Counted from the stretch's first letter, positions 6,991-47,084 are shown. The stretch is DNA of 64,000 nucleotides from an uncultured Bacteroides sp. (GCA_964433215.1 CAYSQI010000002.1:66496-130495); one strand, 5' to 3'. Notes: generated from the sequence alone by a model not told the origin. Numbers and translations: made by a program.

Positions 6991-8295
6991 TTATTCTACG
7001 GGAATGTCTTTGTTGACATTTTTGTAGCCAACGAGCGAGTACACGAAGATGTAGGCGAGCATGGCGAATACGAGCCAGTAGCTGGCCACGTAGCCGACGG
7101 TGCGGCCGATGTAGTCCTGGATGAAAGGCATGATGCCGCCACCGACAACCATGGTCATGAACAGACCGGAAGCTTTGGCGGTGTACTTGCCGAGGCCTTC
7201 AGTAGCGAGGTTGAAAATGCCACCCCACATTACAGAGGTGCACAGACCGCAAAGGATGAGGAACAGACACTTCATGGGAACTTCGCCTGAGGTGATGTTG
7301 AGGAACTTGATTTCGGGGAGAGTGAAAGTGTACTTTTCGGGGAGCAGGATGGCGGTGAGCACCAGCAGGAGAGCCACAGTCGACACTGTGAGAATCTGGG
7401 CGCGCGACGACACCTTGCCACTGATAATTGAGCTGCAGAAGCGGCCTACGAGCATCAGAAGCCAGTAGATGGCGGCGAGCGAGCCGGCCACGGCAGCAGC
7501 GCCTACGAAGTTCTCGCGGCTAATCCAGATGTTGAGCTCGCCGGGGATGCCGACTTCGATACCTACATAGAAGAAGATGGCGATGATGCCGAGGGTGCAG
7601 TGGCGGAAAGCCAGCGGGCTGCGTTCGTAGGTAACTTTGTTGAGGTTGGCCTGAGGTTCAACAATCTTGATGAACGAGATGATGATGAAGGCGAGGACGA
7701 AGATGACGATACCGGTCACGACCAGCGGGGTGACGGCGGTCATCGAGGTTTCTTTGGTGAGGGTGCCAACCAGAACGCCGACAAACATCGGGGTGAGCGT
7801 GGCCGACAGCGAGTTGAGAGTGCCGCCTACCTGGATGAGCTGGTTGCCTTTGTTGCCGCCGCCGCCCAGGAGGTTGAGCATGGGGTTAACTACGGTGTTG
7901 AGCATGCAGACGCAGAAGCCGCAGACCAAAGCGCCGAGCAGGTAGATGAACAGGTTGAGAGTGGTGGGAATAGCGCCGTTGATGACGATGACGTCGGCAC
8001 CGACCACGCTCGACAGAAGCTGAATGCCAAGGCCGATAGCGCCGACAGCCAGGGCGATAAGCGCGGTTTTCTTGTATCCGTAGCGGATAAGCATGTTGCC
8101 AGCGGGAATACCCATGAAGAGGTATGCTGCAAAGTTCATTAAGTTGCCGGCCATGCCTGCCCATTCGTATTTAAATCCCCAAATATTGCCGAAAGGTGCG
8201 GCCATATTTGTAACAAATGAGATCATTGCGAAGATGAAGAACATCGTAATAATCGCAATCAGACGACCATTTGATTTTTGATTAGTTTGACTCAT
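6991..8295 (-). CDS. MFS sugar transporter, FucP/GluP family
   Basis: About 12 hydrophobic segments; FFIFAMISFVTN, NTVVNPML, FFYVGIEVG, MVVGGGIMP motifs. Confidence 0.9.
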   Translation of the reverse strand: MSQTNQKSNGRLIAIITMFFIFAMISFVTNMAAPFGNIWGFKYEWAGMAGNLMNFAAYLFMGIPAGNMLIRYGYKKTALIALAVGAIGLGIQLLSSVVGADVIVINGAIPTTLNLFIYLLGALVCGFCVCMLNTVVNPMLNLLGGGGNKGNQLIQVGGTLNSLSATLTPMFVGVLVGTLTKETSMTAVTPLVVTGIVIFVLAFIIISFIKIVEPQANLNKVTYERSPLAFRHCTLGIIAIFFYVGIEVGIPGELNIWISRENFVGAAAVAGSLAAIYWLLMLVGRFCSSIISGKVSSRAQILTVSTVALLLVLTAILLPEKYTFTLPEIKFLNITSGEVPMKCLFLILCGLCTSVMWGGIFNLATEGLGKYTAKASGLFMTMVVGGGIMPFIQDYIGRTVGYVASYWLVFAMLAYIFVYSLVGYKNVNKDIPVE

Positions 8296-8471
8296 AGCGG
8301 TCTTTTAATTGAGGTTTAAGGTGTTGTTATTTTAAAGGTGGATATGTTTATTCGTTTAGCCAGTGCAAATATACGTATTAATTTGCTTAAAAAGAATAGA
8401 TTTTTAGTTTTATTATTTTGAAGGCGTATGATTATGACCTGAATTTTGTAGTGTATGGTCGGTTATGAGGT

Positions 8472-10105: not shown

Positions 10106-13100
10106 ATGAAAAAGCTGTTTCTTTTACTCGTGGCAGTGCTGTCCATCGGCTTGTGTGCGTCGGCTCAGACGCGTACGGTCAAAGGTACAGTGCTCGACGC
10201 CGAAAATGACGAGCCGCTGATTGGCGTGTCAGTGACAGCGGGAAATGACGCAATGGGCGTCACTACCGATGTTGACGGCGACTTTACCATCGTAGTTCCT
10301 GAGTCGGCCAAGCACTTGACAATCTCGTACATTGGCTACCAGACTCAGACAGTAAAAATCTCAGACTCTAAACTGGTCATTAAACTCCAGTCGAGCACAA
10401 TGGGCCTCGACGAAGTGATTGCCGTAGCTTACGGTACAGTTAAGAAGGCTGAGTACACTGGTTCTGCTTCGGTTGTGAAAGCAGACCAACTCCAAGATGT
10501 TCTCGTATCAAACGTTACAAACGCCCTGTCGGGTAAGATGTCGGGTGTGATCACTCAGAGCTCTAACGGCCAGCCCGGTAGCTCTGCTTCGGTCCTCATT
10601 CGCGGTATTGGTTCTATCAATACTTCGAGCTCGCCTCTTTATGTAGTCGACGGTATGCCTTACAATGGCGATATCGCTGCTATCCCGACTACCGATATCG
10701 AAGCAATCACCGTTCTGAAGGATGCTGCTTCGACTGCTCTGTATGGCGAACGTGGTGCCAACGGCGTAATTCAGATTACCACCAAGCGTGGCCGTGAGGG
10801 TTCCGCACGCGTGACTATTGACATGCGTTGGGGCCAGAACTCGCGCATGCTTCCCAACTATGACGTAATTTCTGATACTCGTCAGTATCTTGAAACCTAC
10901 TACCAAGCTATCTATAACACACAGTACTACTATAACGGTCGTACAAAAGAAGCAGCTGCTGCTTACGCTGCAAACGCTGTATTCCCCAACCTCGGTTATA
11001 CAACCTTTACCGTTCCCGAAGGTCAAAACTACTTCGGTGCTGACGGTAAGTTCAACCCCAACGCTACCGAAGGCTATAGCAATGGTCGCTACTTCTTCAA
11101 GGTCGACGATTGGGAAAAATATGCACTTACCAAGGGCCTCCGTCAGGAATACAATATGTCGGTGACCGGTGGTACTGATCGTATCAACTACTACCTCTCG
11201 GGTACCTACCTGGGCGACGAAGGTATTATCTATGCTTCAGACTTCAAGCGTTTCAGCACTCGCGCCGCTGTTGACTTCAAGGTTAACAATTGGTTGATGC
11301 TGAACTCCTCGATCATGTACACTTACTATGACACCGGTAGCCCCGACAACCAGACCAATGGCGGTGCTTCGACTGTCAACACCTTCTACTTTGTCAATGG
11401 TATCGCTCCTGTTTACCCGATGTTCGTCCGCGGCGTCGATGGCCAGGTAATGCGCGATGTAGCTCTCGGCAACAAGCCTGTCTATGACTACGGCGACGGC
11501 CACGACTATGGCAACGGCCTCATTGGCGCTATGCGTTCGCAGAGCGGTAACCCGACCGGTAACCTCATCTACGACACCAACCGCTACTACTGTGACATCT
11601 TCGACGGCAAGTGGTCAGCTCGTCTGACTCCCCTGGCAGGTCTGACTATCACCGGTTCTGCCGGCTTGTTCATTGACAACACTCGCTATAGCAGCCTCGC
11701 TAACCCCTTCTATGGTCAGAACTCAACTGCCGGTGGCTCAGTATACCAGGCAACTGATCGTCTGCGCACTCTGACATTCCAGGCCATCGCTGAATACACC
11801 AAGACATTCAATGATGTTCACAACTTCACCATCATGGCCGGTTACGAAAACGAAGACTACCACTCGGAAGGCATCCAGGCTATTGGTTACAACCTCTACC
11901 AGCCCTTCGTACCCGTTGTAAACAACACCAGCGATGACCGTCGTGGTTATGGCTCAGCCGCTAACCTTGTTCACCGTGCTATCATCGGTCGTATCCGCTA
12001 TAACTTCAACGACCGCTACTTCGTTTCGGGTTCGGTTCGTCGCGGTGCTTCTTCGCGTTTCGCTGAAGACAAGCGTTGGGGTACCTTCTTCTCGGCCAGC
12101 GCCGGTTGGGATATCGCCAAGGAACATTTCATGGAAGACTTCACTAACGTCGACCAGTTGAAATTCAAGGCTTCGTTCGGTCAGAACGGTAATGACCTTA
12201 TCGGTAGCAACTACATCGCATACGCTGACCAGTATAAGATTTCCGGTTCAGACGGCGTCTGGTCAGATGGTGTGCTCACTTACAAAGGTAACCCCGATGT
12301 AACCTGGGAAAAATCTAACGCATTCAACATCGGTTTCGACTTCAGCTTCTTCAAAGGCAAGCTGAGTGGTACTGCCGAATACTACAACCGTCAGACTTCT
12401 GACATGCTCTTCAACATCCCCGTTTCGCCCTCACTTGGCTATTCGTCGATGCCTAAGAACGTTGGTTCGATGCGTAACAATGGTTTCGAAATCGAACTCA
12501 ACTACCGTCCCGTTAACACTAAGGACGTGACTGTTGACATCTTCGCAAATGCTACCTTCCAGGGCAACAAGATTCTGGAACTTGCTCCCGAAATCATGAC
12601 CTACAACGAACAGTTCGACTGCGACTTCTGGCGCTACTCGAATACCCACTGGTTCAAGGAAGGTGAATCGATGTATCAGTACTACCTCGTAGAAGATGCC
12701 GGCATCGTTCACAACCAGGCCGAACTCGACGAAGTTGTTGCCGCCGGTGGCGTTGGCGAACTTGGTGGCCGTCTCTTCTGGGCCAAGGATCCCGAAACCG
12801 GTGAAATGTACCGTACCGGTGAATATCAGACCGCTCTCGACACTCACCGCAAGTGCACCGGCAACCTCCTGCCCAAGGTATATGGTGGTTTTGGCTTCAA
12901 TGTTAACGCCTATGGTTTCGACCTCTCCGCTACCTTCTCTTATCAGCTCGGCGGCCGCCTGGTCGACTACGGTTATCAGAACGTGATGCAGCCCGGTACC
13001 AATGTTGGTATGAACATGCACAAGGACCTGCTCAATGCGTGGACTGAAGACAATCAGAACACCAATATTCCGAAGCTCTATACCACTACCGGTTATCAGT

Positions 13101-13363
13101 ACGCTACTGCAATCACCGAAGAGACATTCCTCACCTCGAGCAACTATCTGTCGCTCAACAACGTGACTTTCGGTTACACTCTGCCCCAGAGCCTCACATC
13201 GAAGCTCCAGCTCGGCTCGGTTCGCGTATACTTCTCGGGTGAAAACCTCGCTCTGTGGTCGCGTCGCAAGGGTCTTGACCCCCGCCAAGGCTTCGGCTCG
13301 TCTGAGAACTACACCTACTCTCCTATTCGCACCCTTTCGGGCGGTATCAACATCTCGTTCTAA
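10106..13363 (+). CDS. SusC/RagA-family TonB-dependent outer membrane transporter
   Basis: N-terminal carboxypeptidase-like domain (VKGTVLDAENDEPLIGVSV), plug motif IEAITVLKDAASTALYGERGANGVIQITTK, C-terminal SGGINISF. Confidence 0.97.
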   Translation: MKKLFLLLVAVLSIGLCASAQTRTVKGTVLDAENDEPLIGVSVTAGNDAMGVTTDVDGDFTIVVPESAKHLTISYIGYQTQTVKISDSKLVIKLQSSTMGLDEVIAVAYGTVKKAEYTGSASVVKADQLQDVLVSNVTNALSGKMSGVITQSSNGQPGSSASVLIRGIGSINTSSSPLYVVDGMPYNGDIAAIPTTDIEAITVLKDAASTALYGERGANGVIQITTKRGREGSARVTIDMRWGQNSRMLPNYDVISDTRQYLETYYQAIYNTQYYYNGRTKEAAAAYAANAVFPNLGYTTFTVPEGQNYFGADGKFNPNATEGYSNGRYFFKVDDWEKYALTKGLRQEYNMSVTGGTDRINYYLSGTYLGDEGIIYASDFKRFSTRAAVDFKVNNWLMLNSSIMYTYYDTGSPDNQTNGGASTVNTFYFVNGIAPVYPMFVRGVDGQVMRDVALGNKPVYDYGDGHDYGNGLIGAMRSQSGNPTGNLIYDTNRYYCDIFDGKWSARLTPLAGLTITGSAGLFIDNTRYSSLANPFYGQNSTAGGSVYQATDRLRTLTFQAIAEYTKTFNDVHNFTIMAGYENEDYHSEGIQAIGYNLYQPFVPVVNNTSDDRRGYGSAANLVHRAIIGRIRYNFNDRYFVSGSVRRGASSRFAEDKRWGTFFSASAGWDIAKEHFMEDFTNVDQLKFKASFGQNGNDLIGSNYIAYADQYKISGSDGVWSDGVLTYKGNPDVTWEKSNAFNIGFDFSFFKGKLSGTAEYYNRQTSDMLFNIPVSPSLGYSSMPKNVGSMRNNGFEIELNYRPVNTKDVTVDIFANATFQGNKILELAPEIMTYNEQFDCDFWRYSNTHWFKEGESMYQYYLVEDAGIVHNQAELDEVVAAGGVGELGGRLFWAKDPETGEMYRTGEYQTALDTHRKCTGNLLPKVYGGFGFNVNAYGFDLSATFSYQLGGRLVDYGYQNVMQPGTNVGMNMHKDLLNAWTEDNQNTNIPKLYTTTGYQYATAITEETFLTSSNYLSLNNVTFGYTLPQSLTSKLQLGSVRVYFSGENLALWSRRKGLDPRQGFGSSENYTYSPIRTLSGGINISF

Positions 13364-13390
13364 TCTCTAACGAAGAAAATTTAGACTACA

Positions 13391-15034
13391 ATGAAAGCTA
13401 TAACAAAATATCTGTCACTTGCGCTTATTGCCTCGACAGTGGTGTCTTGCTCTGACCTCGACACTGAATACTGGGACGATAGTGTGACGACTGGTCAGAA
13501 GGAAAATACTCTGGCCCAGAACCCCGATATGGCTTCCGCTGCTGTTAATGCTGTGTCGTCGCAGTTTGGTAGCTACTTTGGCCAGGTTTATGGTGGTCAG
13601 CACTGGGAATATGGTTATCCTTCGATTATGAGCGGTCTCGACAGCCAGACCGACTCTTATCTGGCTAAGATTCCTTACACTTCGTCGCACGTTTATTGGT
13701 TCAGCTTCTATCAGCGCACCCCCAACGGCGTGTCTACCAACTATACTTGGTATCACATGTACAAGCAGATTTCGCTCTGCAACGCTCTCGCTGTTACTAT
13801 CCCTGCTGATACCGACAACGAAGAACTGAAGTTCTACCGCGCTCAGGCTCTTACTGTTCGCGCATTCGACTACTGGGTACTTGCTCAGCTCTATCAGTTC
13901 AACTATGCTCTGAATCCTCAGGCTCTCTGCGTACCTATCATCACCGATGAAAACGAAAAGGAAGCTGCTGAGAATGGTGCACCTCGCGCTACTTGCGAAG
14001 AAGTTTTCGATCAGATTCTCAAAGACATCAACGAAGCTATCGCTCTGTTCGAAGGTTCGTCGACTACTCGCGAACGTGTCATGAGTGTTAAGCCCAAACG
14101 TATGGCCAACCTCGCCGTTGCCTACGGTTTGCGCGCTCGTGCTTACCTGACCATGCATAAGTATCAGGAAGCTGCTAACGATGCAGCAAAGGCTATCGCT
14201 ATTCACGGTGGCGCTCCCTATTCAATCGCTGAAGTTTCGGTTCCCGGCGTTGACAATTCAGAAGCAAGCTCTTGGATGTGGGGTATCTACGTTGCTGAGA
14301 GCGACCGCCCTGTCACCACCGGCATCTGTAACTGGCCTTCGCAGATCGGTACATTCACCGATGGCTATGCTAACTTTGGTGGCTGGCGTTGGATCAATAA
14401 GAAACTCTATGAATCTATCCCCACAACCGACGTTCGTAAGGGTTGGTTCCTTGATGAGAACTATACTTCGCCCAACTTGAGCAAGGCTCAGCAGGAATAC
14501 CTCACTCAGTATATCGATGTTGATGGCAATAACCTCTATGGTGCGATGAGTCAGTACATCATGCCTTACACTCAGGTTAAATTTGGCGAATACGGCGACA
14601 TGGGTGGCTACTGCGGTGCATACGAAGTGCCTCTGATGCGTGTCGAAGAAATGTACTACATCCAGGCCGAAGGTACTGCTATGGCAGGTAACCCCGCCGA
14701 AGGTGCAGCTCAGCTTGTTAACTTCGTTAAGACTTATCGCGACCCCGCTTACTCATTCGCAGGTGCTTCGGCTGAAGAAGTTCAAAACGAAATCGTGCGT
14801 CAGCGTAGCATCGAATTGTGGGGCGAAGGTCTCGCTTGGTTCGACGTGATGCGTCTCAACCGTGGTATCGACCGCACCGGTGGTGCTGCTATGGACGACT
14901 GGAACTACAAACTCGATCCCGGTTTCCCAGGTTTCATCTATTGCATCCCGCAGAATGAAATCACTGCCAACCGCGCAATTTCTGAAAGCGACAATAACCC
15001 GTCGGCTTCTGCTCCCCAGGCTATTCCGCAATAA
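13391..15034 (+). CDS. SusD/RagB-family lipoprotein
   Basis: Lipobox VSC-SD; RAFDYWVLAQLY, GLRARAYL, LMRVEEMYYIQAE, ELWGEGLAWFDVMR motifs; directly after susC. Confidence 0.95.
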   Translation: MKAITKYLSLALIASTVVSCSDLDTEYWDDSVTTGQKENTLAQNPDMASAAVNAVSSQFGSYFGQVYGGQHWEYGYPSIMSGLDSQTDSYLAKIPYTSSHVYWFSFYQRTPNGVSTNYTWYHMYKQISLCNALAVTIPADTDNEELKFYRAQALTVRAFDYWVLAQLYQFNYALNPQALCVPIITDENEKEAAENGAPRATCEEVFDQILKDINEAIALFEGSSTTRERVMSVKPKRMANLAVAYGLRARAYLTMHKYQEAANDAAKAIAIHGGAPYSIAEVSVPGVDNSEASSWMWGIYVAESDRPVTTGICNWPSQIGTFTDGYANFGGWRWINKKLYESIPTTDVRKGWFLDENYTSPNLSKAQQEYLTQYIDVDGNNLYGAMSQYIMPYTQVKFGEYGDMGGYCGAYEVPLMRVEEMYYIQAEGTAMAGNPAEGAAQLVNFVKTYRDPAYSFAGASAEEVQNEIVRQRSIELWGEGLAWFDVMRLNRGIDRTGGAAMDDWNYKLDPGFPGFIYCIPQNEITANRAISESDNNPSASAPQAIPQ

Positions 15035-15064
15035 TTATTCATCAACTTCATTCAATAGTAAATT

Positions 15065-16987
15065 ATGAAATTCTTCAAATATACGTTGATTGCAGCTGCG
15101 ACAGCTATGTCGCTGGGCTTTACCGCCTGCGATGACGATGATGATTACACGCCCGGCGCACAAAGCAATGGCGTCCTCTTCCCGTCGCAAGCCACCACGG
15201 TTGAGCTGGAGACTGCTTCTACATCAATGACTGTGACCGTTTCGCGTTTCGGTCTGACTGATGCCGCCACTTATTCGTTGGCGTCAACCGTTTCGGTTGA
15301 TGGTGCGGTGCTGACTGCTGAAGAAAGCCCTATCCATGTACCTGCTCAGGTGACATTCGCAGCTAACGAATCGACCGTCGAACTCGTTATTCCCGTTGAT
15401 GCAGCTTCGATGCCTACCTCGGTTCCTTACACCGTTTCGCTGGCAGTAGGCGAAGGCTCTCCTGCCTTTAACTATGGCAATACTACCTTAACCCTCAGTG
15501 TAGTTCGCGCTGAAGCTTGGGGTGAATGGCAGGCCTACGACAAATCAGGTGTCGGTACCTGGACTTATGCCCTTGGTCTTGACTATTTTGCTACCGGTGA
15601 TGATCCTGACCTCCCTGTATGGGTTCGTTACAACAGCGAAAAGCCTGATCAGGCTCAGTTCCTGGTTGAACATTGGGGCTATGACTCGCCGTTGTATATC
15701 AATTGGAACACGAAGACAAATTATGTATCTATTCCTGCGCAGGGCACCGGACAAGTGCTTAATATCTCAGGATATGGCGAGTTTGAGCTTTATATCATGT
15801 CGTACGATGTCTATGCTGAGTTGAATGGCGCTGGTCCTGCAGATTATGCAGAGGCTCAGGCTGCATCAACTTTCGATAGCACGACCGGTCTGTTCGATAT
15901 TTTCGTGTGCTATGGTGTCTTTTTGACTAGTGATTATTTCGCTATGTTAAGTGGTAATGACCCCTACGGATACGAGCAATTGCAACTTGGCGAATATGCT
16001 GACTATAGCCTCCAAATGGCCTATAAAGGCGTCTTTACCGGCGCTGATGGAAGCATGTCGGCTGTGATTACTTCCAATATCGGCGCGAGCGCCACGAAGG
16101 CTGTATTCGCTGCTTCGAAGGATTACTCAAGTGCTAATGAACTTCTGTCTGCTGTGCTTTCAGGCGCTGTTGCTACTGTAGAAGCAGCTCCCGGTCAGGG
16201 CGTAGATGTAGAAATTCCTGTCACGGGTGCCGGTGATTACTACGCTGTCGGCGTTACTTACTCGGGCGATGAACCCATGAATGCCGAAGCTGTGAAGTTT
16301 ACAATTGCAGGTGGTGCTTCCGGATGGAAGGACTGCTGCCCTGTTGAAGTCATTGATGGTTGGGTAATTCCTGCATTCCTCGTAGAAGGTGCTACTAACG
16401 AAGAAGTAGCTTGGAGGTGCCAAGGCCAAGTCAATAGCGAAGACCCCAACGTATATCGTCTCTTGAATCCGTACACTGATGAGAACTGTCCTCTGTACGA
16501 CTATAATAGCAATACCGGCTCGGTTGGTATCGTCATCGACGCAACCAACGAAGAGTGTGTAAAGATTGCGCCTCAGTACTCAGGCTTCTCCTTTAATAAC
16601 AGTGGTACTATGCTCGATTTCTTCATTGCAAATGTTGCCGGTTACTACGCGGATAACGGTATGTCTGATGATGAAATCTTGCAAAGAGGTTATGGTCAGG
16701 ATTGGGCTGACGGTTTCCTTGAAATCGAACTACCTATCTTTGGCTATAACGGCGGTGCAGATTTTGAAGCCTACAGTTGGAAAAATCCTGAGCCGACGAT
16801 TCTGTACTTCGATTTCGAAAGCGGTGCAAGTGCTCCTGCAAAAGCAAAAGCTTCTTTCGCCGGCATTAGCGCTAATCGTCTGAATGCTTCGTTGAAGAGC
16901 GGTTTCCGTCTCCCGCTTGAACGTACTTACTCAGTTCGCCCGGAGAATACCATTGGCACTGAAAACGTATTCCACCTCGTGAAATAA
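15065..16987 (+). CDS. Surface-exposed lipoprotein of the SusC/D unit (putative ligand-binding)
   Basis: Lipobox FTAC followed by DDDDD (acidic export signal); Ig-like N-terminus plus two aromatic-rich domains. Confidence 0.8.
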   Translation: MKFFKYTLIAAATAMSLGFTACDDDDDYTPGAQSNGVLFPSQATTVELETASTSMTVTVSRFGLTDAATYSLASTVSVDGAVLTAEESPIHVPAQVTFAANESTVELVIPVDAASMPTSVPYTVSLAVGEGSPAFNYGNTTLTLSVVRAEAWGEWQAYDKSGVGTWTYALGLDYFATGDDPDLPVWVRYNSEKPDQAQFLVEHWGYDSPLYINWNTKTNYVSIPAQGTGQVLNISGYGEFELYIMSYDVYAELNGAGPADYAEAQAASTFDSTTGLFDIFVCYGVFLTSDYFAMLSGNDPYGYEQLQLGEYADYSLQMAYKGVFTGADGSMSAVITSNIGASATKAVFAASKDYSSANELLSAVLSGAVATVEAAPGQGVDVEIPVTGAGDYYAVGVTYSGDEPMNAEAVKFTIAGGASGWKDCCPVEVIDGWVIPAFLVEGATNEEVAWRCQGQVNSEDPNVYRLLNPYTDENCPLYDYNSNTGSVGIVIDATNEECVKIAPQYSGFSFNNSGTMLDFFIANVAGYYADNGMSDDEILQRGYGQDWADGFLEIELPIFGYNGGADFEAYSWKNPEPTILYFDFESGASAPAKAKASFAGISANRLNASLKSGFRLPLERTYSVRPENTIGTENVFHLVK

Positions 16988-24635: not shown

Positions 24636-26045
24636 ATGCCTCGACAGTCGCAAGCGCAAACTCAGCAACAGCAATTAGGACAGAAATTAAGTCCACAGCA
24701 GGTGGCCTTCGGTCGCGTGCTGGAGATGTCTGCTGCCGAATTTGAGGAAGAAACTCGTCGCACCATCGATGAAAATCCGGCCCTTGAGGTAGTCGAATCT
24801 CAGCCAGATGAAACGCCCGGCGCGGGCGAAGGTGATTTTAACGAGACGGCCGAGCAGCTGCAGCAGGGAGATTATGTCAGTGAGGATGATATGCCTACAT
24901 ACCCACAATCACGGCAGCAACGCTCGTCTTACGAGGATTATACTCATGGCTCCGGACAAGCCGACGACACTGCTTCGGGTTACGAACTGCTTGAACATCA
25001 GCTCGACATGGAGGATTTGGATGCTCTCGACCGCTCTATTGCTACTTATATTATCGGAAATATCGATGACAATGGCCGCCTGACGCGCTCTGTCGTGCAG
25101 ATTGCCGATGATATTGCCATCGCTGCCGGCCTCGACATCAGCGAGACAGATGTGGAACGCGTGCTGAGTGTAGTGCGTTCGCTTGAGCCGGCCGGAATTG
25201 CCGCATTCGATTTGCGCGACTGCTTGCTGCTACAGCTCGACCGAAAGGATACGACCCGGCAGGACGTAGCTGATGCCCGTATGATAATTGCCGACAAATT
25301 CGAGTTGTTTTCAAACCGGCATTTCGATCGCTTAGGCTTGTCGCGCGAGCGGGTAGATGCAGCTCGAAAGGTAATTCGAGGTTTGAACCCCAAGCCGGGT
25401 TCGTTGCTCCAACTTTCGGCAAGTGCTGACCGCACTCGCCAGATCTCGCCTGACTTTTTCGTAGATGTTGACCACAATGGGCGCGTGTCGGTGTCGCTTG
25501 CCGGAAATATCCCGGAGCTTGCCGTGGACCGCTCGTTTCAGATTGATGCCGGTCGTCCTGACGAAAAGGCATTTATAAAAGAACGTCGCGACCAGGCATT
25601 GGCCTTCATAGATATGTCGCGTCGTCGCACGCAGACGCTTCTTGACGTAATGGAGGCTATAGTGCGACTTCAGCCTGATTTTTTTAAAACATTCGACCGG
25701 AGCAGTCTCCGTCCGATGGTATTGAGAGATGTGAAGGCTTTGACGGGACACGATTTAAGTGTGATTTCTCGAGCGACTGCATCGAAATATGTATCTACTC
25801 CGCAAGGCAATTTCTTGCTAAAGTCGCTGTTTAGTGAAGCATCCGGCGACAATAATGAGATGTCGTCGCATGCAGTCCTTGATGCACTTAAGCAGATTGT
25901 GGAGAATGAGGATCCGGCTTCGCCGCTTTCGGATGATGCTATTAGCGAGGCTCTCGCTAATCAGGGTATCGCTATCGCTCGCCGTACCGTAGCTAAATAT
26001 CGCGAAAGGCTCGGCATACCGGTTGCGCGTTTGCGTCGTAACTAA
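24636..26045 (+). CDS. rpoN: RNA polymerase sigma-54 factor
   Basis: Q-rich region I, ENPALE, RpoN box ARRTVAKYRE. Confidence 0.96.
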   Translation: MPRQSQAQTQQQQLGQKLSPQQVAFGRVLEMSAAEFEEETRRTIDENPALEVVESQPDETPGAGEGDFNETAEQLQQGDYVSEDDMPTYPQSRQQRSSYEDYTHGSGQADDTASGYELLEHQLDMEDLDALDRSIATYIIGNIDDNGRLTRSVVQIADDIAIAAGLDISETDVERVLSVVRSLEPAGIAAFDLRDCLLLQLDRKDTTRQDVADARMIIADKFELFSNRHFDRLGLSRERVDAARKVIRGLNPKPGSLLQLSASADRTRQISPDFFVDVDHNGRVSVSLAGNIPELAVDRSFQIDAGRPDEKAFIKERRDQALAFIDMSRRRTQTLLDVMEAIVRLQPDFFKTFDRSSLRPMVLRDVKALTGHDLSVISRATASKYVSTPQGNFLLKSLFSEASGDNNEMSSHAVLDALKQIVENEDPASPLSDDAISEALANQGIAIARRTVAKYRERLGIPVARLRRN

Positions 26046-26060
26046 TTTCGGTAGGTATAT

Positions 26061-26194
26061 AAACAAACGGGGCCTCTCTCACGAGAAGCCTCCTGCATGA
26101 TAACCTTTAAAACCTTAAACCAAATTATAATCTTTTTTACCTTAAATTGTCCTTCGGGTTTGGTACCCTATTCGGTGTTGTTCCGAACTTTTGA
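26061..26194 (-). ncRNA. Candidate small noncoding RNA, divergent from the DUF6377 regulator
   Basis: TAATTTTG -7 motif (26207-26200), about 135 nt with no credible ORF, internal hairpins, four AAGG motifs, GTGA-tetraloop hairpin (26071-26090) followed by GTTTGTTT. Confidence 0.45.
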
Positions 26195-26373
26195 CAATGC
26201 AAAATTACTGCTTTAGCTCACCCTCGGCAAGTACGTATATGACCTTTGTGAGTCGATATAAATTGCATACATTATTTAATCATTGATAATCATCGATATA
26301 ACATACTTGAAATATAAATAGAAATTGAGAATTGTATAACTCGGTTTTCGGAAAATATTACTATATTTGCAGC

Positions 26374-27951
26374 ATGAAACCCCGTCGAATTCTTCAGCTT
26401 TTCTTTCTCTCGCTTGCTGTGATGGTGCAGACGATGGATTTGTCGGCCGTCGAACGTCCCAAGCGCCTTTGCGATGCAATCACGGACCTCGATGAAGCAA
26501 TAGTCAATCGCAATGTTTACCGAGAACGTTGCTATCGGTCGATTGACTCTTTGCGAGCGCAATATGTTGCTTCGTCCGATTTTGATATTTGTCGCCGGTT
26601 GAGTAAAGCTTTTGCCGATGTAAATGCCGATTCGGCCTTTTATTATTTGTATCAGGCTCATGATATTGCAGAATGCCGCGCCGATTTGCAGGCTCACAGT
26701 CGAGTCTTGCTCGATTATGCCAATATGTTGCATCGAGGTATGTTGTATGCTGATGCTCTTGATGTTATAGATTCTGTGAATGTCGCTTCGCTCTCGCGCG
26801 CAGACAGTATCGCATACTATTCTATTCTTAGTCGGACATGTATGAGCGCTTCTCAGCAGCAGATACTATTCAGCTCGCGAAGTGATTATTGTTCGCGAGC
26901 TTTAGCCGCTCTTGATTCGTTAGTAAGCTTTTTCCCGGATGGTACAATAGCTCGCCATATCACTCAGGCACAAATATATTATTTAGAAGGAGATATGACC
27001 CTCGGAGTCGGGGAGCTAAATGAAGCCTACGAAAGTATGGAGCCCGGTCACGAGGCAAATGCTGCCTTAACGAGTATGCTTGCTGCATATTATAAGACGA
27101 AGCCTTCGGCGCGAGAGGAGTATCTTTATTATTTGGCTCTTTCGGCGGCTTCCGATGTGCGTTCTGTCAATGGCGAGCCATTGTCGCTTGTAGCTTTGGC
27201 CTCCGAGTTGTTCAGCGATGGAGATGTCGACCGTGCATATAGCTATTTGAATGCGGCTGCTGAAACTCTAAATAGCTCGGGCTCAACCCTTCTCAGTACA
27301 GATATTATCAAGCCACTGACGGAAGTAAATAGCCATATACTCGCACGCGAAAGCAGAGCTCGCAATAAATATTTGGTAATTATTGGCATTTGTTGTGCTG
27401 TAGCGCTGCTGTTTGTGATACTCTATGTGGCGCGTCGGCGGAGTATTGCGCAGCGCGACAGACTTATTCAGACGCTGTCCGACACTGTGAGCAATCGCGA
27501 GCTTTATATCAGCCAATTGCTCAATATCTGCTCGGTGTATTTGGAAAGTATGGAGGACTTTAACCGACTTGTCGGTCGCAAACTTAAAGCGGGTCAAGCA
27601 AAAGATCTTTATTCTGATGTAGAATCCGGTAAGTGGCTTCATGAGTGCAATGAGCGTTTCTTTGAAGCGTTTGATGCTGCAGTGCTAAAGATTTACCCTG
27701 ACTTTGTGGCGCAGGTAAATCGGCTGCTTCAGTCTGATAAGCCTTTGGCGCAACCTGCTTCGGGTCGTTTGTCGCCCGAGTTGCGTATTATCGCATTTAT
27801 GCTTCTGGGAGTTGAAGATTCTACGCGCATATCGAAGTTTCTCGGACTATCGCTCACTACGATTTATACCTATCGCAATCGAGTGAAATCACGCGCTATC
27901 GATAAGGATAATTTTGATGCAGATATACTTAAGATTGGAAAAATCGCTTAA
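26374..27951 (+). CDS. SusR-like/DUF6377 membrane-spanning transcriptional regulator (periplasmic TPR-like region, one TM, C-terminal LuxR-type HTH)
   Basis: Signal peptide from MKPRRILQ (26374); TM YLVIIGICCAVALLFVILYVA; FDAAVLKIYPDFV...LSPELRIIAFMLLG...ISKFLGLSLTTIYTYRNRVK. Confidence 0.85.
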   Translation: MKPRRILQLFFLSLAVMVQTMDLSAVERPKRLCDAITDLDEAIVNRNVYRERCYRSIDSLRAQYVASSDFDICRRLSKAFADVNADSAFYYLYQAHDIAECRADLQAHSRVLLDYANMLHRGMLYADALDVIDSVNVASLSRADSIAYYSILSRTCMSASQQQILFSSRSDYCSRALAALDSLVSFFPDGTIARHITQAQIYYLEGDMTLGVGELNEAYESMEPGHEANAALTSMLAAYYKTKPSAREEYLYYLALSAASDVRSVNGEPLSLVALASELFSDGDVDRAYSYLNAAAETLNSSGSTLLSTDIIKPLTEVNSHILARESRARNKYLVIIGICCAVALLFVILYVARRRSIAQRDRLIQTLSDTVSNRELYISQLLNICSVYLESMEDFNRLVGRKLKAGQAKDLYSDVESGKWLHECNERFFEAFDAAVLKIYPDFVAQVNRLLQSDKPLAQPASGRLSPELRIIAFMLLGVEDSTRISKFLGLSLTTIYTYRNRVKSRAIDKDNFDADILKIGKIA

Positions 27952-28093
27952 GTATACACTTATATTTTTATTCTTTCAATATTTGTTAATACCTCTGAAT
28001 ATCAAGAATATAATTTTAGATTTTCCTTAAATCTATTTATATTGCATTTCGATAGGAGCATTTTTTGCTTGCATCGTTGCTAAATTTGCATTG

Positions 28094-28232
28094 TAAATAA
28101 TATTTAGGTCTAAGATTCAAGGATATTATTAAGGATTATTCAGAAGGAATTTACAAGGATTAAAAAAATGGTTTTAGGTATTTAGTGTTAGACCACACAC
28201 AGAAAAGTCGAACCGCGAGGTTCGACTTTTCT
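28094..28232 (+). ncRNA. Candidate small noncoding RNA downstream of the DUF6377 regulator
   Basis: TAAATTTG -7 motif (28081-28088), about 140 nt with no credible ORF, AAGGA at 28119/28131/28144/28155, ends in a strong GCGA-loop terminator. Confidence 0.5.
28201..28232. terminator. Bidirectional intrinsic terminator
   Basis: AGAAAAGTCGAACC-GCGA-GGTTCGACTTTTCT perfect 14-bp stem. Confidence 0.88.
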
Positions 28233-28255
28233 ACTTGTATGAGTATTCGTAATTC

Positions 28256-29095
28256 TTAGAATTTCTTTCGCGGAAACGCGTCGATGTAGCTGCCGGTCGT
28301 TGAGTTGTAGATATTTACACCTTTCTTTCGAGCAAATCGAGCTATCTGATGATAGCTGTTGAAGGCTATATAGAAGCTCTTGAGTATGTCGTGTAGGTGG
28401 TAGCCTTTGTATTCGGTGACGCTGCGCGTAGTCTCGGCTTCGGAGTCTTTGTAGAAATGAGGCTGTATGGATACTACATTGTTGTTGTCGTTGACGCGAA
28501 TAGTTTCGAGCCACGAGTGGTCGGCGCCGGCAATGTAAATATCTTTAAAACCGGCGTTTATGCCGAGCATTATCGAAGGAATCAGTACGTTGCGCGGACG
28601 CGGCATAGCGCGACCGGCAGCGAATGCGCGGTCTTCGAGCCATGCGAAAGCGTCGATACCTACGAAGTTGAATGTTGCGATTTCGACATTAGTTTTCGGG
28701 CCGAGCAGTTTCTTGGCTTGTTTGTATCGCGTGGTAGGAACGAATAACGTCATGGCGTGTTCGGAGTGGCTTATGTTGCTCCAAAGCGATTGTACGTTTT
28801 CATTGTTGAGCCCGGTGAAAAAATGCGGGTCGGCCAGCACGTAGAAGTCGGGTTGAATTATTTGAAATTCAGGGGTGTTGGCCATGAAGTTTACGCAGAG
28901 CGTCGTTGCGCTCTTGAGGTATTCTGTTCTCTCGGCCAGAGTTTGCTTCAACGACGGACCGTTGGCCAATATCACAAGCGGCTCATCAGCTTTGGGTGTG
29001 CGCGCAGTGTTGATAGTGCGTCGCGATGACACGATTATTTTGGCGAGAGCGAATAAAGACGAGCCTGTAAGTCTTAAAAAATCAGAGGCTTTCAT
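28256..29095 (-). CDS. DUF115/Maf-like or GT42 (Cst-II-like) putative nonulosonate transferase
   Basis: LVILANGPSL, LCVNF, YVLADP, IYIAGADHSW...HFY resemble the Rossmann-like GT42/Maf motifs; lies at the end of a glycan gene run. Confidence 0.6.
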   Translation of the reverse strand: MKASDFLRLTGSSLFALAKIIVSSRRTINTARTPKADEPLVILANGPSLKQTLAERTEYLKSATTLCVNFMANTPEFQIIQPDFYVLADPHFFTGLNNENVQSLWSNISHSEHAMTLFVPTTRYKQAKKLLGPKTNVEIATFNFVGIDAFAWLEDRAFAAGRAMPRPRNVLIPSIMLGINAGFKDIYIAGADHSWLETIRVNDNNNVVSIQPHFYKDSEAETTRSVTEYKGYHLHDILKSFYIAFNSYHQIARFARKKGVNIYNSTTGSYIDAFPRKKF

Positions 29096-33736: not shown

Positions 33737-34567
33737 ATGGAAAACGCAGGAGTAAAATCGTCGGCCGGGCCGATAAAAATCGACCTGGGTGCAGTGCTAC
33801 GCGAGCGCAAAGCTACGCGTTGCGTGCCCGGCTTTGTCGTGAGTTGGCTCAAGCGGTTGATACGCCAAGACGAGCTCAACGCTATGCTCCAGGCGGCGTA
33901 TCCGGCTCGAGGAGCCGAGTTTTGCCATGCCGTCCTCGACCACCTTGGCGTGAGCGTGTCCGTTAGCCATGAGGAGCGTCTGCCCGCCGCAGAGCAGCGC
34001 CGCGTTATTTATGTTAGCAATCATCCGCTTGGCGGGCTCGACGGCATGGCTCTCATTGATTGGGTCACTCGTCGCCACGGTGTCGAACCTCGCTTCGTGG
34101 TCAATGATTTGCTGATGGCCATAGAGCCTCTGCGCGAAGTCTTTCTGCCAATCAACAAGCATGGAGGTCAGTCGCGCGATGCAATTGCAGCAATCGACCG
34201 AGCCTTGGCCGACGACCGCCCCGTCATTATATTTCCGGCCGGCTTGTGTTCGCGCCGGCGCGGCGGAGTCGTTGCCGACTTGGAGTGGAAAAAGATGTTC
34301 GTGCTGAAAGCGCGGCAGACAGGGCGTCCGATACTGCCTCTGCATTTCAAGGGCCGCAATAGTTCGCGCTTCTATCGACTGGCAAATTTACGCGAGCGCG
34401 TGGGCATCAAGCTCAACGTAGAGATGGCTCTCTTGCCGGGCGAGATTTTCAAGGCCCGAGGCAAGGCGTTTGAAATAGTGTGTGGCGACCCTATCGACGC
34501 GGAGGCGCTCGCCGGCGATGCACAGACGGTAGCCGCTCGTATCCGCCAATATGTATTGAATTTATAA
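33737..34567 (+). CDS. PlsC-like acyltransferase (GlsA-like O-acyltransferase candidate)
   Basis: SNHPLGGLDG (HX4D), IIFPAGLCSR, WKKMF motifs; upstream of a GNAT gene. Confidence 0.85.
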   Translation: MENAGVKSSAGPIKIDLGAVLRERKATRCVPGFVVSWLKRLIRQDELNAMLQAAYPARGAEFCHAVLDHLGVSVSVSHEERLPAAEQRRVIYVSNHPLGGLDGMALIDWVTRRHGVEPRFVVNDLLMAIEPLREVFLPINKHGGQSRDAIAAIDRALADDRPVIIFPAGLCSRRRGGVVADLEWKKMFVLKARQTGRPILPLHFKGRNSSRFYRLANLRERVGIKLNVEMALLPGEIFKARGKAFEIVCGDPIDAEALAGDAQTVAARIRQYVLNL

Positions 34568-34595
34568 GACCTTAAGTCATAGAATTAAAAAAACG

Positions 34596-35549
34596 ATGAA
34601 CCGGAAAATCATAAACCCCGTACCCACCGAGCTAATCGAGCGCGAACTCACAGCCGAGCGATTTCTGCGCGACACAAATAAGGGTGGCAATCAGATATAT
34701 GTCGTAGATGCCCACAATTCGCCGAATGTGATGCGCGAAATCGGACGTCTGCGCGAGATTGCTTTTCGCTTGGCCGGAGGTGGCACGGGCAAGGACTGCG
34801 ACATCGACGAGTTCGATACGATGCAGCCCGCTTGTCAGCAGTTGTTGGTTTGGGACCCGGTGGGCAAACAGATACTTGGAGGCTATCGCTACATTTGCGG
34901 CAAGGATATACGCACCGACGAGCATGGCCGTCCGCGCATCGCCACTGCTCACATGTTCAATTTTTCCGATAAGTTCATCAAAGATTATTTGCCATATACC
35001 ATCGAACTTGGTCGTTCGTTTGTGCGACCGGAATACCAGTCGTCGCAGGCCGGTGCGAAGGCCCTTTATGCCCTCGACAACTTGTGGGACGGGCTCGGCA
35101 GCCTCACCGTCATTCATCCCGACATTAAGTATCTCTTCGGTAAGGTGACCATGTATCCCAACTACACCGAGGAGTGCCGCGACATGATACTTTACTTTCT
35201 GCACAAGCATTTTCCCGACCCCGACCACTTGGTACGACCCATCACGCCGCTGCCGTTCGAGAGCGATCCGCGCGAGATGGAGAAGATTTTCACATCCGAT
35301 GATTTCAAGGAGGATTATCTGATACTGAATACCCATGTTCGCGCTCATGGCGACAACATCCCGCCGCTGGTCAACGCTTACATGAGTCTTTCGCCGACGA
35401 TGCGTATGTTCGGCACAGCTATCAACGATGAATTCGGCAACGTCGAGGAAAGTGGTATTTTCTTTGCCGTCGATGAAATTCTTGATGCCAAAAAGCGTCG
35501 ACACATCGACTCATACCATCCTACGCTGCCCCTTTCCTCAGATATGTAA
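34596..35549 (+). CDS. GNAT-family N-acyl amino acid synthase (GlsB/OlsB-like)
   Basis: EIGRLREIAFR..GGGTG...DIDEFD, ILGGYR, IELGRSFV, LWDGLG, PPLVNAYM. Confidence 0.85.
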   Translation: MNRKIINPVPTELIERELTAERFLRDTNKGGNQIYVVDAHNSPNVMREIGRLREIAFRLAGGGTGKDCDIDEFDTMQPACQQLLVWDPVGKQILGGYRYICGKDIRTDEHGRPRIATAHMFNFSDKFIKDYLPYTIELGRSFVRPEYQSSQAGAKALYALDNLWDGLGSLTVIHPDIKYLFGKVTMYPNYTEECRDMILYFLHKHFPDPDHLVRPITPLPFESDPREMEKIFTSDDFKEDYLILNTHVRAHGDNIPPLVNAYMSLSPTMRMFGTAINDEFGNVEESGIFFAVDEILDAKKRRHIDSYHPTLPLSSDM

Positions 35550-46581: not shown

Positions 46582-46700
46582 AACGCTGATTTCCAAATTT
46601 ATGATGAGGTTTTTTGGCACTAATCCCCAAATTTATAATATGGTTTTTGGCACTAATCCCCAAATTTTAGATGAGATATCTGGCACTAATCCCCAAATTT
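46582..46700. repeat. Array with 33-bp period (19-bp core GGCACTAATCCCCAAATTT + 14-bp spacer); three exact cores and one degenerate
   Basis: Cores at 46616, 46649, 46682; degenerate AACGCTGATTTCCAAATTT at 46582 next to the minus-strand TAACTTTG promoter motif (46566-46573). Confidence 0.93.
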
Positions 46701-46840
46701 TAATCAGCATAGTCGGTTCGCATTTTTATCGGTCGAGAAATTTTTGCTATCAGTGGTATGGAATTTTTTTAGCGTCGGTTGTTTATATGTTGGTAATTAT
46801 TTTCAACCGTTTTTTTTACGTTGGACTAAAAAAATCAGTA

Positions 46841-47084
46841 AATTTGCGGACGGATCAATTGCCTTCGGCACCGTGCACCGGTCTTCGACCGACGTTCACT
46901 ATTGACCGACACGCTAATTAGAGAATTTGCGGTCGGATCAATTGCCTACGGCACCGTGCACCGGTCTACGACCGACGTTCACTATTGACCGACGCGCTAA
47001 TTAGAGAATTTGCGGACGGATCAATTGCCTACGGCATCGTGCACCGGTCTTCGACCGACGTTCGCTATTGACAGACACGCTAAT
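46841..47084 (+). repeat. Three tandem copies of an 83-bp palindrome-rich unit
   Basis: Units start at 46841, 46924 and 47007; copies 1 and 2 differ at 4 positions; internal hairpins TGCC-T(T/A)C-GGCA and CGGTC-T(T/A)C-GACCG. Confidence 0.97.

Follow-up and report, generated by a model that had tools for sequence, protein, structure and literature searches.

A stretch of 64,000 nucleotides from an uncultured Bacteroides sp. (GCA_964433215.1 CAYSQI010000002.1:66496-130495), referred to below as the window and labeled WIN among the compared loci (the related loci being L001 and so on), encodes a transmembrane sensor-regulator of the SusR type that is flanked by two predicted small RNA (sRNA) genes, unit A and unit B. 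The order of genes is rpoN, unit A on the minus strand, the regulator gene and unit B on the plus strand, and an MptE-like/GT2 operon that converges on unit B. Annotation of the window with Pfam and NCBIfam revealed neither susC/D nor a carbohydrate-active enzyme (CAZyme) gene adjoining the regulator, and the sole susC/susD pair of the window, at 10106-15034, lies 13 kb from it. The absence of such genes beside the regulator had been part of the original prediction for this region, together with the claims that two promoter-to-terminator units of ~135-140 nt flank the regulator and that both have the same start, four AAGG motifs and a GNRA-loop hairpin. All of these claims are borne out, the units themselves by their sequence, their -7 boxes and their terminators.

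The sensor gene and the two predicted sRNA genes

The regulator matches the Pfam family DUF6377 (E = 6e-50, 170.5 bits) and, over its full length, the NCBIfam model SusR_regulator (NF058541), where its score of 295.2 bits does not reach the equivalog cutoff of 480 bits; judged by these profiles, it is a relative of the SusR family and not a SusR equivalog. The hydropathy profile indicates a signal-like N-terminus and a single internal hydrophobic, transmembrane helix at residues ~333-352. The predicted layout, comprising a periplasmic N-terminal domain, the transmembrane helix and a cytoplasmic DUF6377 region with a C-terminal helix-turn-helix (HTH), is the architecture of the SusR family. The description of the protein as a membrane-spanning DUF6377/LuxR regulator, given in the original prediction, is accurate with respect to DUF6377 and the helix, and its LuxR label is left unverified because the protein has no Pfam GerE/LuxR match, only a weak HTH_29 match at the C-terminus. 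The -7 box of the regulator gene ends 4 nt before the ATG, so the mRNA is predicted to be leaderless or nearly so. The same arrangement of box and ATG (26362-26376) is found in L001 and L002, and not in L003.

Unit A is predicted to fold into a hairpin at its 5' end and to continue as a single strand, rich in A/U and containing the four AAGG motifs, up to its terminator. For unit B, the fold of the whole unit has z = -5.8 against shuffled sequences. Only 25 nt separate its terminator from the stop codon of the MptE-like gene that converges on it, and the hairpin may therefore serve to end transcription in both directions. The two units share a promoter string, TAATTTTGCATTGT at 26194-26207 (-) and TAAATTTGCATTGT at 28081-28094 (+). 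Two exact matches to TANNTTTGCATTGT occur in the 64 kb, at units A and B only (0.32 expected at no more than one mismatch), and TAnnTTTGCATTGT, present in both units, has no other exact match in the 64 kb. The shared decamer TTTGCATTGT consists for the most part of the -7 promoter box typical of Bacteroidota, TAnnTTTG, together with the start region and, being largely a -7 box, marks the promoter rather than the RNA body or the RNA 5' end. The canonical Bacteroidota promoter has been described previously (PMC7366714).

Each unit contains exactly four AAGG motifs, the maximum seen, and only 0.34% of the 137-nt segments of the 64 kb reach this count; the number of WAGGW motifs in unit B, six, is also the maximum for the window. 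The parts common to units A and B are only the promoter, a 16-22-nt block, TGGTTTWAGGTWTTWA, with two matches in the window against 0.12 expected, and the type of terminator. No small peptide ORF (open reading frame) is common to the units: the ATG in the B core yields MVLGI*, which is not kept. The small-peptide reading of unit B was rejected, given a TAA at codon 3 in L057 and L063, the lack of an ATG in L115 and a broken frame in unit A. Coordinates of all these features are collected in Table 1.

Table 1. Components of the module in the window, neighboring genes, and examples of two families found in related loci. Positions refer to the window unless a locus is named; positions of half-sites in parentheses are relative to the -7 box.
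Feature	Position	Strand	Basis or remark
Regulator, SusR-like transmembrane sensor-regulator, 525 aa	26374..27951	+	Pfam DUF6377, NCBIfam SusR_regulator, hydropathy profile, tree clade
Regulator -7 box TATATTTG	26362..26369	+	Sequence
Unit A, predicted ~135-nt sRNA, divergent from regulator	26061..26195	-	Sequence and fold
Unit A -7 box TAATTTTG	26200..26207	-	Kept in all A-type loci
Unit A proximal half-site TTATAT (-54)	26256..26261	-	-54 in 8/10 loci
Unit A distal half-site TTATAT (-110)	26312..26317	-	-110 or -109 in 8/10 loci
Unit A terminator hairpin, 8-bp stem, GTGA loop, then CCGTTTGTTT	26071..26090	-	Terminator scan
Unit B, predicted ~140-nt sRNA, unstructured A/U-rich body, six WAGGW	28093..28235	+	Homologue family
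Unit B -7 box TAAATTTG	28081..28088	+	Sequence, homologues
Unit B distal half-site TTATAT (-121), 9 nt past regulator stop	27960..27965	+	-121 (+/-1) in 30/32 loci
Unit B proximal half-site TTATAT within TTTATTTATAT (-44)	28037..28042	+	-44 or -45 in 31/32 loci
Unit B conserved 5' block TAGGTCTAAGATTCAAGG	28105..28122	+	Columns at least 90% conserved, 31-sequence alignment
Unit B core block TGGTTTTAGGTATTTAGTGTTAGA	28169..28192	+	Partly common to unit A (26107-26122, -); resembles FopS/BTnc231 seed region
Unit B terminator hairpin, 13-bp stem, GCGA loop	28201..28230	+	Fold and covariation
rpoN	24636-26045	+	Pfam/NCBIfam annotation
MptE-like (PF01973) gene, convergent with unit B	28256..29095	-	Pfam and synteny table; context only, no role in the module shown
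Crp/Fnr-like gene, L118	10951-11718	-
Crp/Fnr-like gene, L041	4385-5242
Crp/Fnr-like gene, L109	3033-3743
Crp/Fnr-like gene, L039	3259-3948	-
Crp/Fnr-like gene, L003	2879-3586
C unit, L004	5530-5850
C unit, L053	136-380
C unit, L062	7827-8055
C unit, L107	5150-5388	-
C unit, L074	~172-204

Conservation of the units and of their predicted operators

A scan with the regulator protein, limited to one genome per species, yielded 37 loci. The closest regulators, those of L001, L002 and L003 (62, 64 and 40% aa identity, respectively), all come from metagenome-assembled genomes or isolates of the Muribaculaceae type. These three loci retain both units, with positions and orientations unchanged, and contain no susC/susD or glycoside hydrolase gene within 4 kb on either side of the regulator. 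A metagenome scan with the block shared by the units returned 86 stretches, of which ~45, from rodent and human gut assemblies, are true homologues of unit B; removal of duplicates leaves 33 distinct B units (nhmmer E 1e-15 to 1e-34). The layout is the same in all homologues, namely a -7 box, GTAAATAAT, (A)GGTCTAAGATTCAAGG, a variable stretch of 30-60 nt with more (A/T)AGG(A/T)T motifs, AAAAGGATTTTTAAATGGTTTTAGGTATTTAGTGTTAGA, and a hairpin with an invariable C-GNGA-G loop. Since the pattern used for the metagenome scan was taken from the 22-nt B core, the invariance of this core among the metagenome sequences is in part forced; the B 5' block and the remainder of the unit were outside the pattern, so their conservation is not forced.

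Compared with the window, the B body is 96.4% (L001), 94.6% (L087) and 93.7% (L002) identical, whereas the last 1500 nt of the regulator gene are 64-67% identical in the same three loci and the promoter spacer 65-68%. The excess of identity in the B body over that in the regulator coding sequence indicates strong purifying selection on a non-coding sequence, and unit B is recognizable even where the regulator shares just ~27-40% aa identity. Within the B family, RNAalifold supports the terminator alone, with compensatory changes in 10 of its 11 pairs, and finds no conserved structure in the B body. A pairing between 5' GGUCUAA and 3' UUAGACC, suggested by the fold of the single sequence, was rejected because it shows no covariation and has no RNAalifold support. 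A -7 box in every homologue and a covarying terminator stem are the features by which a trans-encoded sRNA gene is recognized. Almost certainly, then, B represents a functional sRNA gene, of a family without a match in Rfam at threshold.

Two observations concern individual B loci. In the chromosome of Muribaculaceae sp. Strain X, unit B is split by an insertion sequence of ~1.15 kb (L003 5687-6840), which encodes a transposase (ORF 5737-6729), is bounded by the terminal inverted repeats ACGCGAGTTCGGGATAAG and has duplicated its target, TGAATA; since the same locus is intact in L117, the Strain X isolate is a natural B knockout. In run X30, mouse-gut contigs break in the invariant core of B (L117 4551-4609) and the loose ends fit the terminators of other B variants, which points to several Muribaculaceae species, each with its own B, in one sample.

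A synteny search had been proposed along with the original prediction, and its outcome is favorable: the arrangement of the regulator and the flanking units is kept across many Muribaculaceae-type loci. The SusR-like gene ends ~130 nt upstream of the B -7 box, on the same strand, in ~24 of ~30 distinct B loci, and a divergent, terminator-ended unit with a -7 box of its own is located upstream of the regulator in 10 distinct loci (WIN, L001, L002, L087, L003/L117, L049, L051/L084, L057, L063 and L080). In all of these A-type units, the 5' hairpin is specific to the lineage, AAGG/TAGG motifs number one to four, and the terminator has a GNRA loop. They are matched weakly by the hidden Markov model (HMM) of the B family (E = 0.01-0.2), and alifold gives no consensus structure across them, the sequences being too divergent for a common alignment. 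Given this divergence between lineages, the look-alike pair that had been proposed belongs to the clade of the window and not to the module: the resemblance is real in that clade and does not extend to a conserved pair. In a ~96%-identical strain, unit A shows at most one difference, compared with 28 in the adjacent 660 nt of rpoN. As far as comparison of the loci goes, the A-type sRNA gene is a partner conserved in position.

Each unit is preceded by two TTATAT half-sites, the positions of which were counted from the first base of the -7 box; the upstream regions, when aligned on the box, prove to be rigidly arranged and free of indels. At unit B, the half-sites are spaced by 77 bp in 24 of 30 loci; at unit A, the spacing is 55-56 bp (56 bp in the window). 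Composite patterns of operator and box are confined within the window to 27960-28088 and 26200-26317, with a chance expectation of 0.00 for each, and the B composite pattern was found upstream of every B unit. The -7 box of the regulator is placed at a fixed -159 to -162 relative to the unit A box, on the opposite strand, and the distal site of unit A is ~45 nt upstream of this regulator box (on the other strand), so it may be an autoregulatory site.

Distant DUF6377 loci (24-30% identity), which come from Paludibacter, Lentimicrobiaceae, Prevotella and rumen Bacteroidales, have susC nearby in 26 of 32 cases, and for 22 of those 26, the susC start is found on the regulator's own strand, 290-430 nt downstream, which is exactly the place of unit B. 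In 15 of the 22 loci, the promoter of the canonical susC gene contains a pair of ACTAC repeats at a spacing of 75-76 bp, the proximal one being at -44 (once -45). In 2013, Ravcheev et al. predicted SusR-like operators as direct repeats with centers 67 or 77 bp apart (PMC3878776). Paired direct repeats, by which the operators of the SusR family are recognized, precede both unit A and unit B. On this comparison, the geometry of the B promoter is that of susC promoters under SusR control, its half-site being TTATAT and not ACTAC, and the predicted architecture of SusR-like operators gains independent comparative support. The paired repeats at susC-promoter geometry, taken with the published prediction, are the principal ground for predicting activation of the units by the adjacent sensor. 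In a neighbor-joining tree of the regulators, midpoint-rooted and without bootstrap support values, all sRNA-linked regulators, including that of the window, fall into one clade and the susC-linked regulators into another. Synteny, clade structure and operator geometry together identify the adjacent orphan sensor as most likely the activator of units A and B.

Two genes recur beside the module. The MptE-like gene is convergent with unit B, or with unit A in L049 and L057. The other gene encodes a ~236-aa Crp/Fnr-like regulator with cNMP_binding and HTH_Crp_2 domains; L107 has both this gene and a SusR-like gene, and the clade of the window (WIN, L001, L002, L087) has no Crp-like gene nearby and rpoN at that position, with none in the 64 kb of the window itself. 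A third noncoding RNA (ncRNA) family, C, has a length of ~230-290 nt. Its conserved 5' block reads ACACGATTATTCAGTTTTAGGGTTAGTATAGAT and its 3' block GTGTTTTATGTTAGTTATGTAATTGTTTTAAGT, its terminator has a GNRA loop, and its promoter, TTATAT-N71-TTATAT-N38-TAnnTTTG, has the same composite pattern as that of unit B. In L004 and L107, C is located directly downstream of a paralogous SusR-like gene, and the two regulators are sisters in the tree. The window contains no C unit, and the sole Rfam match of the C family is BTnc231, with 18.4 bits.

Likeness to known RNAs and candidate targets

At the gathering threshold, Rfam identifies one tRNA in the window and nothing else, and the assignment of the units to a known RNA family was rejected. 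Below the threshold, unit A matches FopS (RF04319) with 19.3 bits (E = 8.4; the gathering score of 56 is not reached), whereas for unit B the scan down to E <= 10 returned nothing. When the FopS consensus was compared with the HMM of the B family, 4.8 bits were obtained, in an alignment collinear with the last ~70 nt of B, which include a seed-like block, a short spacer and a GUGA-loop terminator. In a dinucleotide shuffle test of local alignments, p = 0.004 was obtained for A versus FopS and p = 0.05 for B versus FopS. The Rfam family that scores best on the units of relatives is BTnc231 (RF04180), with 29 (L003) and 24.9 bits (L051) on B units, 22 (L051) and 20.2 bits (L049) on A units and 18.4 bits on a C unit; its matches in L003, L049, L051 and L053 span 18-29 bits, short of its gathering score of 80.4, and it gives no hit at E <= 10 on the units of the window. 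Overall, the likeness of the units to FopS and BTnc231 is suggestive and below threshold. The kinship with paralogous sRNAs bound by RbpB, which the original prediction had raised, thus finds some backing in sub-threshold matches with a collinear seed and terminator, and fails every membership threshold applied.

FopS and GibS are unstructured Bacteroides sRNAs that pair with translation-initiation regions, mainly those of susC mRNAs (PMC11697453, PMC7366714); FopS represses susC translation-initiation regions and is bound by RbpB, a protein with an RNA recognition motif (RRM) (PMC11697453). The units described here resemble FopS and GibS in being predicted trans-encoded sRNAs that are short, A/U-rich and mostly unstructured, are expressed from a canonical -7 promoter, end in a terminator with a GNGA loop and are present in several related copies per genome. 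With FopS in particular, they may share a U-rich seed with a UGGUAUUAGAUUUAAGGUUA-like sequence, to which the B core is collinear at ~20/23 positions, and unit A shares AUUUAAGGUAAAAAAGAUU. They differ from FopS, which is ~65-70 nt long and has its R1' seed at the extreme 5' end, in being twice as long (~135-140 nt), in the internal or 3'-proximal location of the seed-like block, which begins ~75 nt past the predicted 5' end, in their occurrence in Muribaculaceae rather than Bacteroidaceae, and in their association with a dedicated sensor gene and operator. We know of no transcription factor for FopS. By analogy, the units plausibly work like the FopS/GibS group. Orthology with GibS was rejected, as the GibS context comprises pab and glycogen operons and its seed is at the 5' end (PMC7366714); SrcF of Segatella was also considered as an identity and rejected. 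BTnc231, an intergenic B. thetaiotaomicron sRNA of unknown function that has been validated and is bound by RbpB, has in common with the units a 5' U-rich/UUAG motif and a GUGA-loop terminator, and differs in its internal hairpins, which the alignments skip.

At the level of circuits, the predicted logic, in which a membrane sensor controls a few sRNA genes through upstream activator sites, would be that of GacS/GacA-RsmX/Y/Z, BarA/UvrY-CsrB/C, LuxO-Qrr1-4 and EnvZ/OmpR-OmrA/B in Proteobacteria. The proteins are unrelated, and a one-component transmembrane regulator is found here in place of a two-component system. With SusR and SusR-like regulators of polysaccharide utilization loci (PULs), such as BT3705 (PMC3878776), the locus shares the protein architecture, paired direct repeats flanking a lengthy spacer and a target promoter just downstream. 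In contrast to those regulators, the predicted regulated units are non-coding RNAs and not susC/D and glycoside hydrolases, and the half-site is TTATAT instead of ACTACA. An orphan SusR-like gene, BT4069, the regulon of which is unknown, has been reported in B. thetaiotaomicron (PMC3878776).

The search for targets included a seed-restricted duplex scan of 52 translation-initiation regions of the window. For unit A, the top candidate was the leader of a GluP/FucP-like sugar transporter of the major facilitator superfamily (MFS; gene 6991-8295, -), which forms a duplex of -23.1 kcal/mol (z = -3.4) with two helices of 10 and 9 bp. This leader (8296-8345, -) contains ACCUUUAAAA and CCUUAAACC, 8 nt apart, which are jointly complementary to GGUUUAAGGUUUUAAAGGU of unit A. 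The candidate is not relied on because the site is absent from three orthologous leaders (L124-L126; 82-88% protein identity). In the fetched B loci, no recurrent complementary site for B was found, k-mer scans giving scattered matches inside coding sequence; a Smith-Waterman scan for complementarity gave no clear outlier, and a whole-body duplexfold scan gave meaningless long loops. In several canonical SusR-like loci, the susC leader has AACCUUAAAU immediately upstream of its AUG, a sequence able to pair with motifs of the AUUUAAGGUU type. In L006, L009, L011, L012, L016 and L022, and also in L007, L008, L017, L021, L031 and L036, the susC leaders are ~180 nt long and end in a conserved CCAAAUCUAAUCAAA-AUG or AACCUUAAAUAAnAAA-AUG, and both of these ends are complementary to FopS-type seed motifs.

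Readings of the module

With moderate confidence, we interpret the locus as a regulatory module consisting of an orphan SusR-type transmembrane sensor and two independently transcribed sRNA genes that it would activate, the RNAs then acting in trans. In the proposed mechanism, the regulator would sense a periplasmic (oligo)saccharide, and its C-terminal HTH would bind the paired repeats and switch on units A and B, possibly along with its own leaderless gene. The two RNAs would act in trans as FopS and GibS do, their single-stranded (A/U)AGG(A/U)U-rich seeds pairing with CCUU/CCUA in the translation-initiation regions of transporter or susC-type mRNAs, and an RRM-type protein may modulate the pairing. 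The sensing of one glycan would in this way re-prioritize the use of others, and glycan sensing at this locus probably feeds into RNA-based regulation. With respect to evolution, unit B would occupy the place of a susC promoter and leader. The original prediction of a path from a periplasmic signal through a transcription factor to a paired sRNA module gains indirect support from the conserved arrangement, the purifying selection on B and the SusR-type operators, and has to be amended in that the pair are not conserved look-alikes.

Several points weigh against this interpretation. The dependence of the units on the regulator is deduced from synteny and operator geometry alone. In L039, L041, L059, L109 and L118, a Crp/Fnr-like gene replaces the SusR-like gene at unit B and both TTATAT sites are kept, so the binding factor could be encoded elsewhere or be another protein. 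At family C, beside a paralogous SusR-like gene, the TTATAT half-site is again in use, which implies that one half-site serves more than one regulator paralogue, or neither. The likeness to FopS and BTnc231 is not significant (19-29 bits versus gathering scores of 56 and 80, 4.8 bits with nhmmer, p = 0.05 for B). No convincing target was found among the translation-initiation regions of the window and the fetched B loci; in the susC leader of the window, GUCUAAC at about -22 pairs with GUUAGAC at the 3' end of the B core, a match of 7 nt only. In metatranscriptomes, the locus is present only as assembled contigs with flat, DNA-like or contig-averaged depth and no strand information, by which transcription is neither shown nor excluded; one such contig ends ~30 nt upstream of the predicted start of unit A.

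A rather unlikely alternative, which retains the same SusR-like wiring upstream, is that the RNAs, and especially B, are sponges that sequester an RRM protein of the RbpB type, as CsrB and RsmY do with CsrA. The five or six single-stranded (A/U)AGG(A/U)U motifs, ~13-14 nt apart, the density of AAGG and WAGGW at the maximum for the window, the recurrence of the motifs in all B homologues within an otherwise variable middle, the unstructured body and the length of the near-invariant block (~40 nt), which exceeds that of a typical seed, would all suit such a function. Moreover, in B. thetaiotaomicron the single-stranded regions of FopS, GibS and BTnc231 are binding sites of RbpB (PMC11697453). 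No gene for an RNA-binding protein is linked to the module, however, the number of motifs varies from 3 to 6 among the homologues, and none of the motifs bound by Bacteroidota RRM proteins is known to match WAGGW. The resemblance to the Rsm/Csr sponges, with their repeated GGA-containing motifs, is also incomplete: CsrA-type sites normally lie in hairpin loops, whereas the numerous AGG(A/U) motifs here lie in unstructured RNA, the body of which has no conserved hairpins.

The five loci with a Crp-like gene in place of the SusR-like one and an unchanged operator, the frequency of this gene as a neighbor, the occurrence of the same half-site ahead of the unrelated C ncRNA, and the A/T-rich character of the half-site, similar to generic UP-like or bendable DNA, could also mean that the sRNA genes are real and that the TTATAT repeats are bound by another factor, for example a Crp/Fnr-like regulator or a nucleoid protein, with the sensor a mere syntenic neighbor. 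We consider this improbable. The sites of Crp/Fnr proteins are short palindromes, unlike the direct repeats found here, which are spaced by 56-77 bp; the two-site geometry of 75-77 bp with a proximal site at -44 is that of canonical susC promoters and of the published SusR-like prediction; the clade of the window lacks a nearby Crp-like gene; and L107 has regulators of both types.

That the units are non-functional remnants, i.e. a decayed susC promoter and leader plus terminators left by the deletion of a PUL, is suggested by the location of B where the susC of distant regulators starts and by its susC-like promoter geometry, and is nevertheless very hard to credit, as decay at the neutral rate would be expected of a relic, whereas the B body is 94-96% identical next to coding sequence at 64-67%, is recognizable at ~27-40% aa identity of the regulator, has a covarying terminator stem and shows no detectable similarity to susC leaders. 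According to the original prediction, relatives with a susCD PUL at this site, lost here by simple deletion, would speak against the module; distant relatives do have susC in the position of B, and B is too conserved for a deletion scar, so the idea of the sRNA module is not refuted by them.

Beyond the single locus, it is conceivable, and put forward as a tentative extension, that Muribaculaceae have rewired SusR-type sensors from activators of PULs to dedicated activators of trans-acting sRNAs, with three or more ncRNA families (A, which varies, B, which is near-invariant, and C, found in relatives) under one operator architecture, a small regulatory island that includes the Crp-like gene, and B as a family-wide global riboregulator. 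If so, B would either act on the mRNAs of PULs and transporters to set hierarchies of glycan priority or serve to titrate an RRM protein. The circuit would be a Bacteroidota counterpart of those of the Gac/Rsm or Spot42 type, headed by a sensor that is known.

No earlier description of the module was found in the literature on DUF6377, Muribaculaceae sRNAs and SusR-like motifs. Its parts, a SusR-type sensor and Bacteroidota sRNAs, are familiar; the wiring of the sensor to sRNAs instead of to a PUL is new and apparently undescribed. How gut Bacteroidota rank glycans is an open question, in which FopS, GibS and RbpB take part in Bacteroides, the signals and transcription factors that switch these sRNAs on being not known. 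The locus offers a testable link, combining a well-understood type of sensor, a recognizable operator and two sRNA genes that appear to be the only local regulon. Its carriers are Muribaculaceae, a dominant yet genetically little-studied gut family. The locus also suggests a plausible evolutionary route from a regulated susC promoter to an sRNA gene, and B and C are added as RNA families, two at the least, for which Rfam has no match at threshold.

Some further features of the window lie apart from the module. The region 10106-16987 contains susC (1085 aa), susD (547 aa) and an unknown gene of 640 aa, with no regulator gene adjoining. The glycine-lipid synthesis genes glsA and glsB, both NCBIfam equivalogs above the cutoffs, are located at 33737-35549. 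Upstream of a gene at 47115, there are two tandem-repeat arrays, one of 3.2 x 33 nt at 46593-46700 and the other of 2.9 x 83 nt (93% matches) at 46841-47084; one TTTATAT-N50-TAAATTTG match, at 46782-46846, lies ahead of the second array, and each 83-nt repeat opens with AATTTGCGG, which resembles the end of the -7 box.

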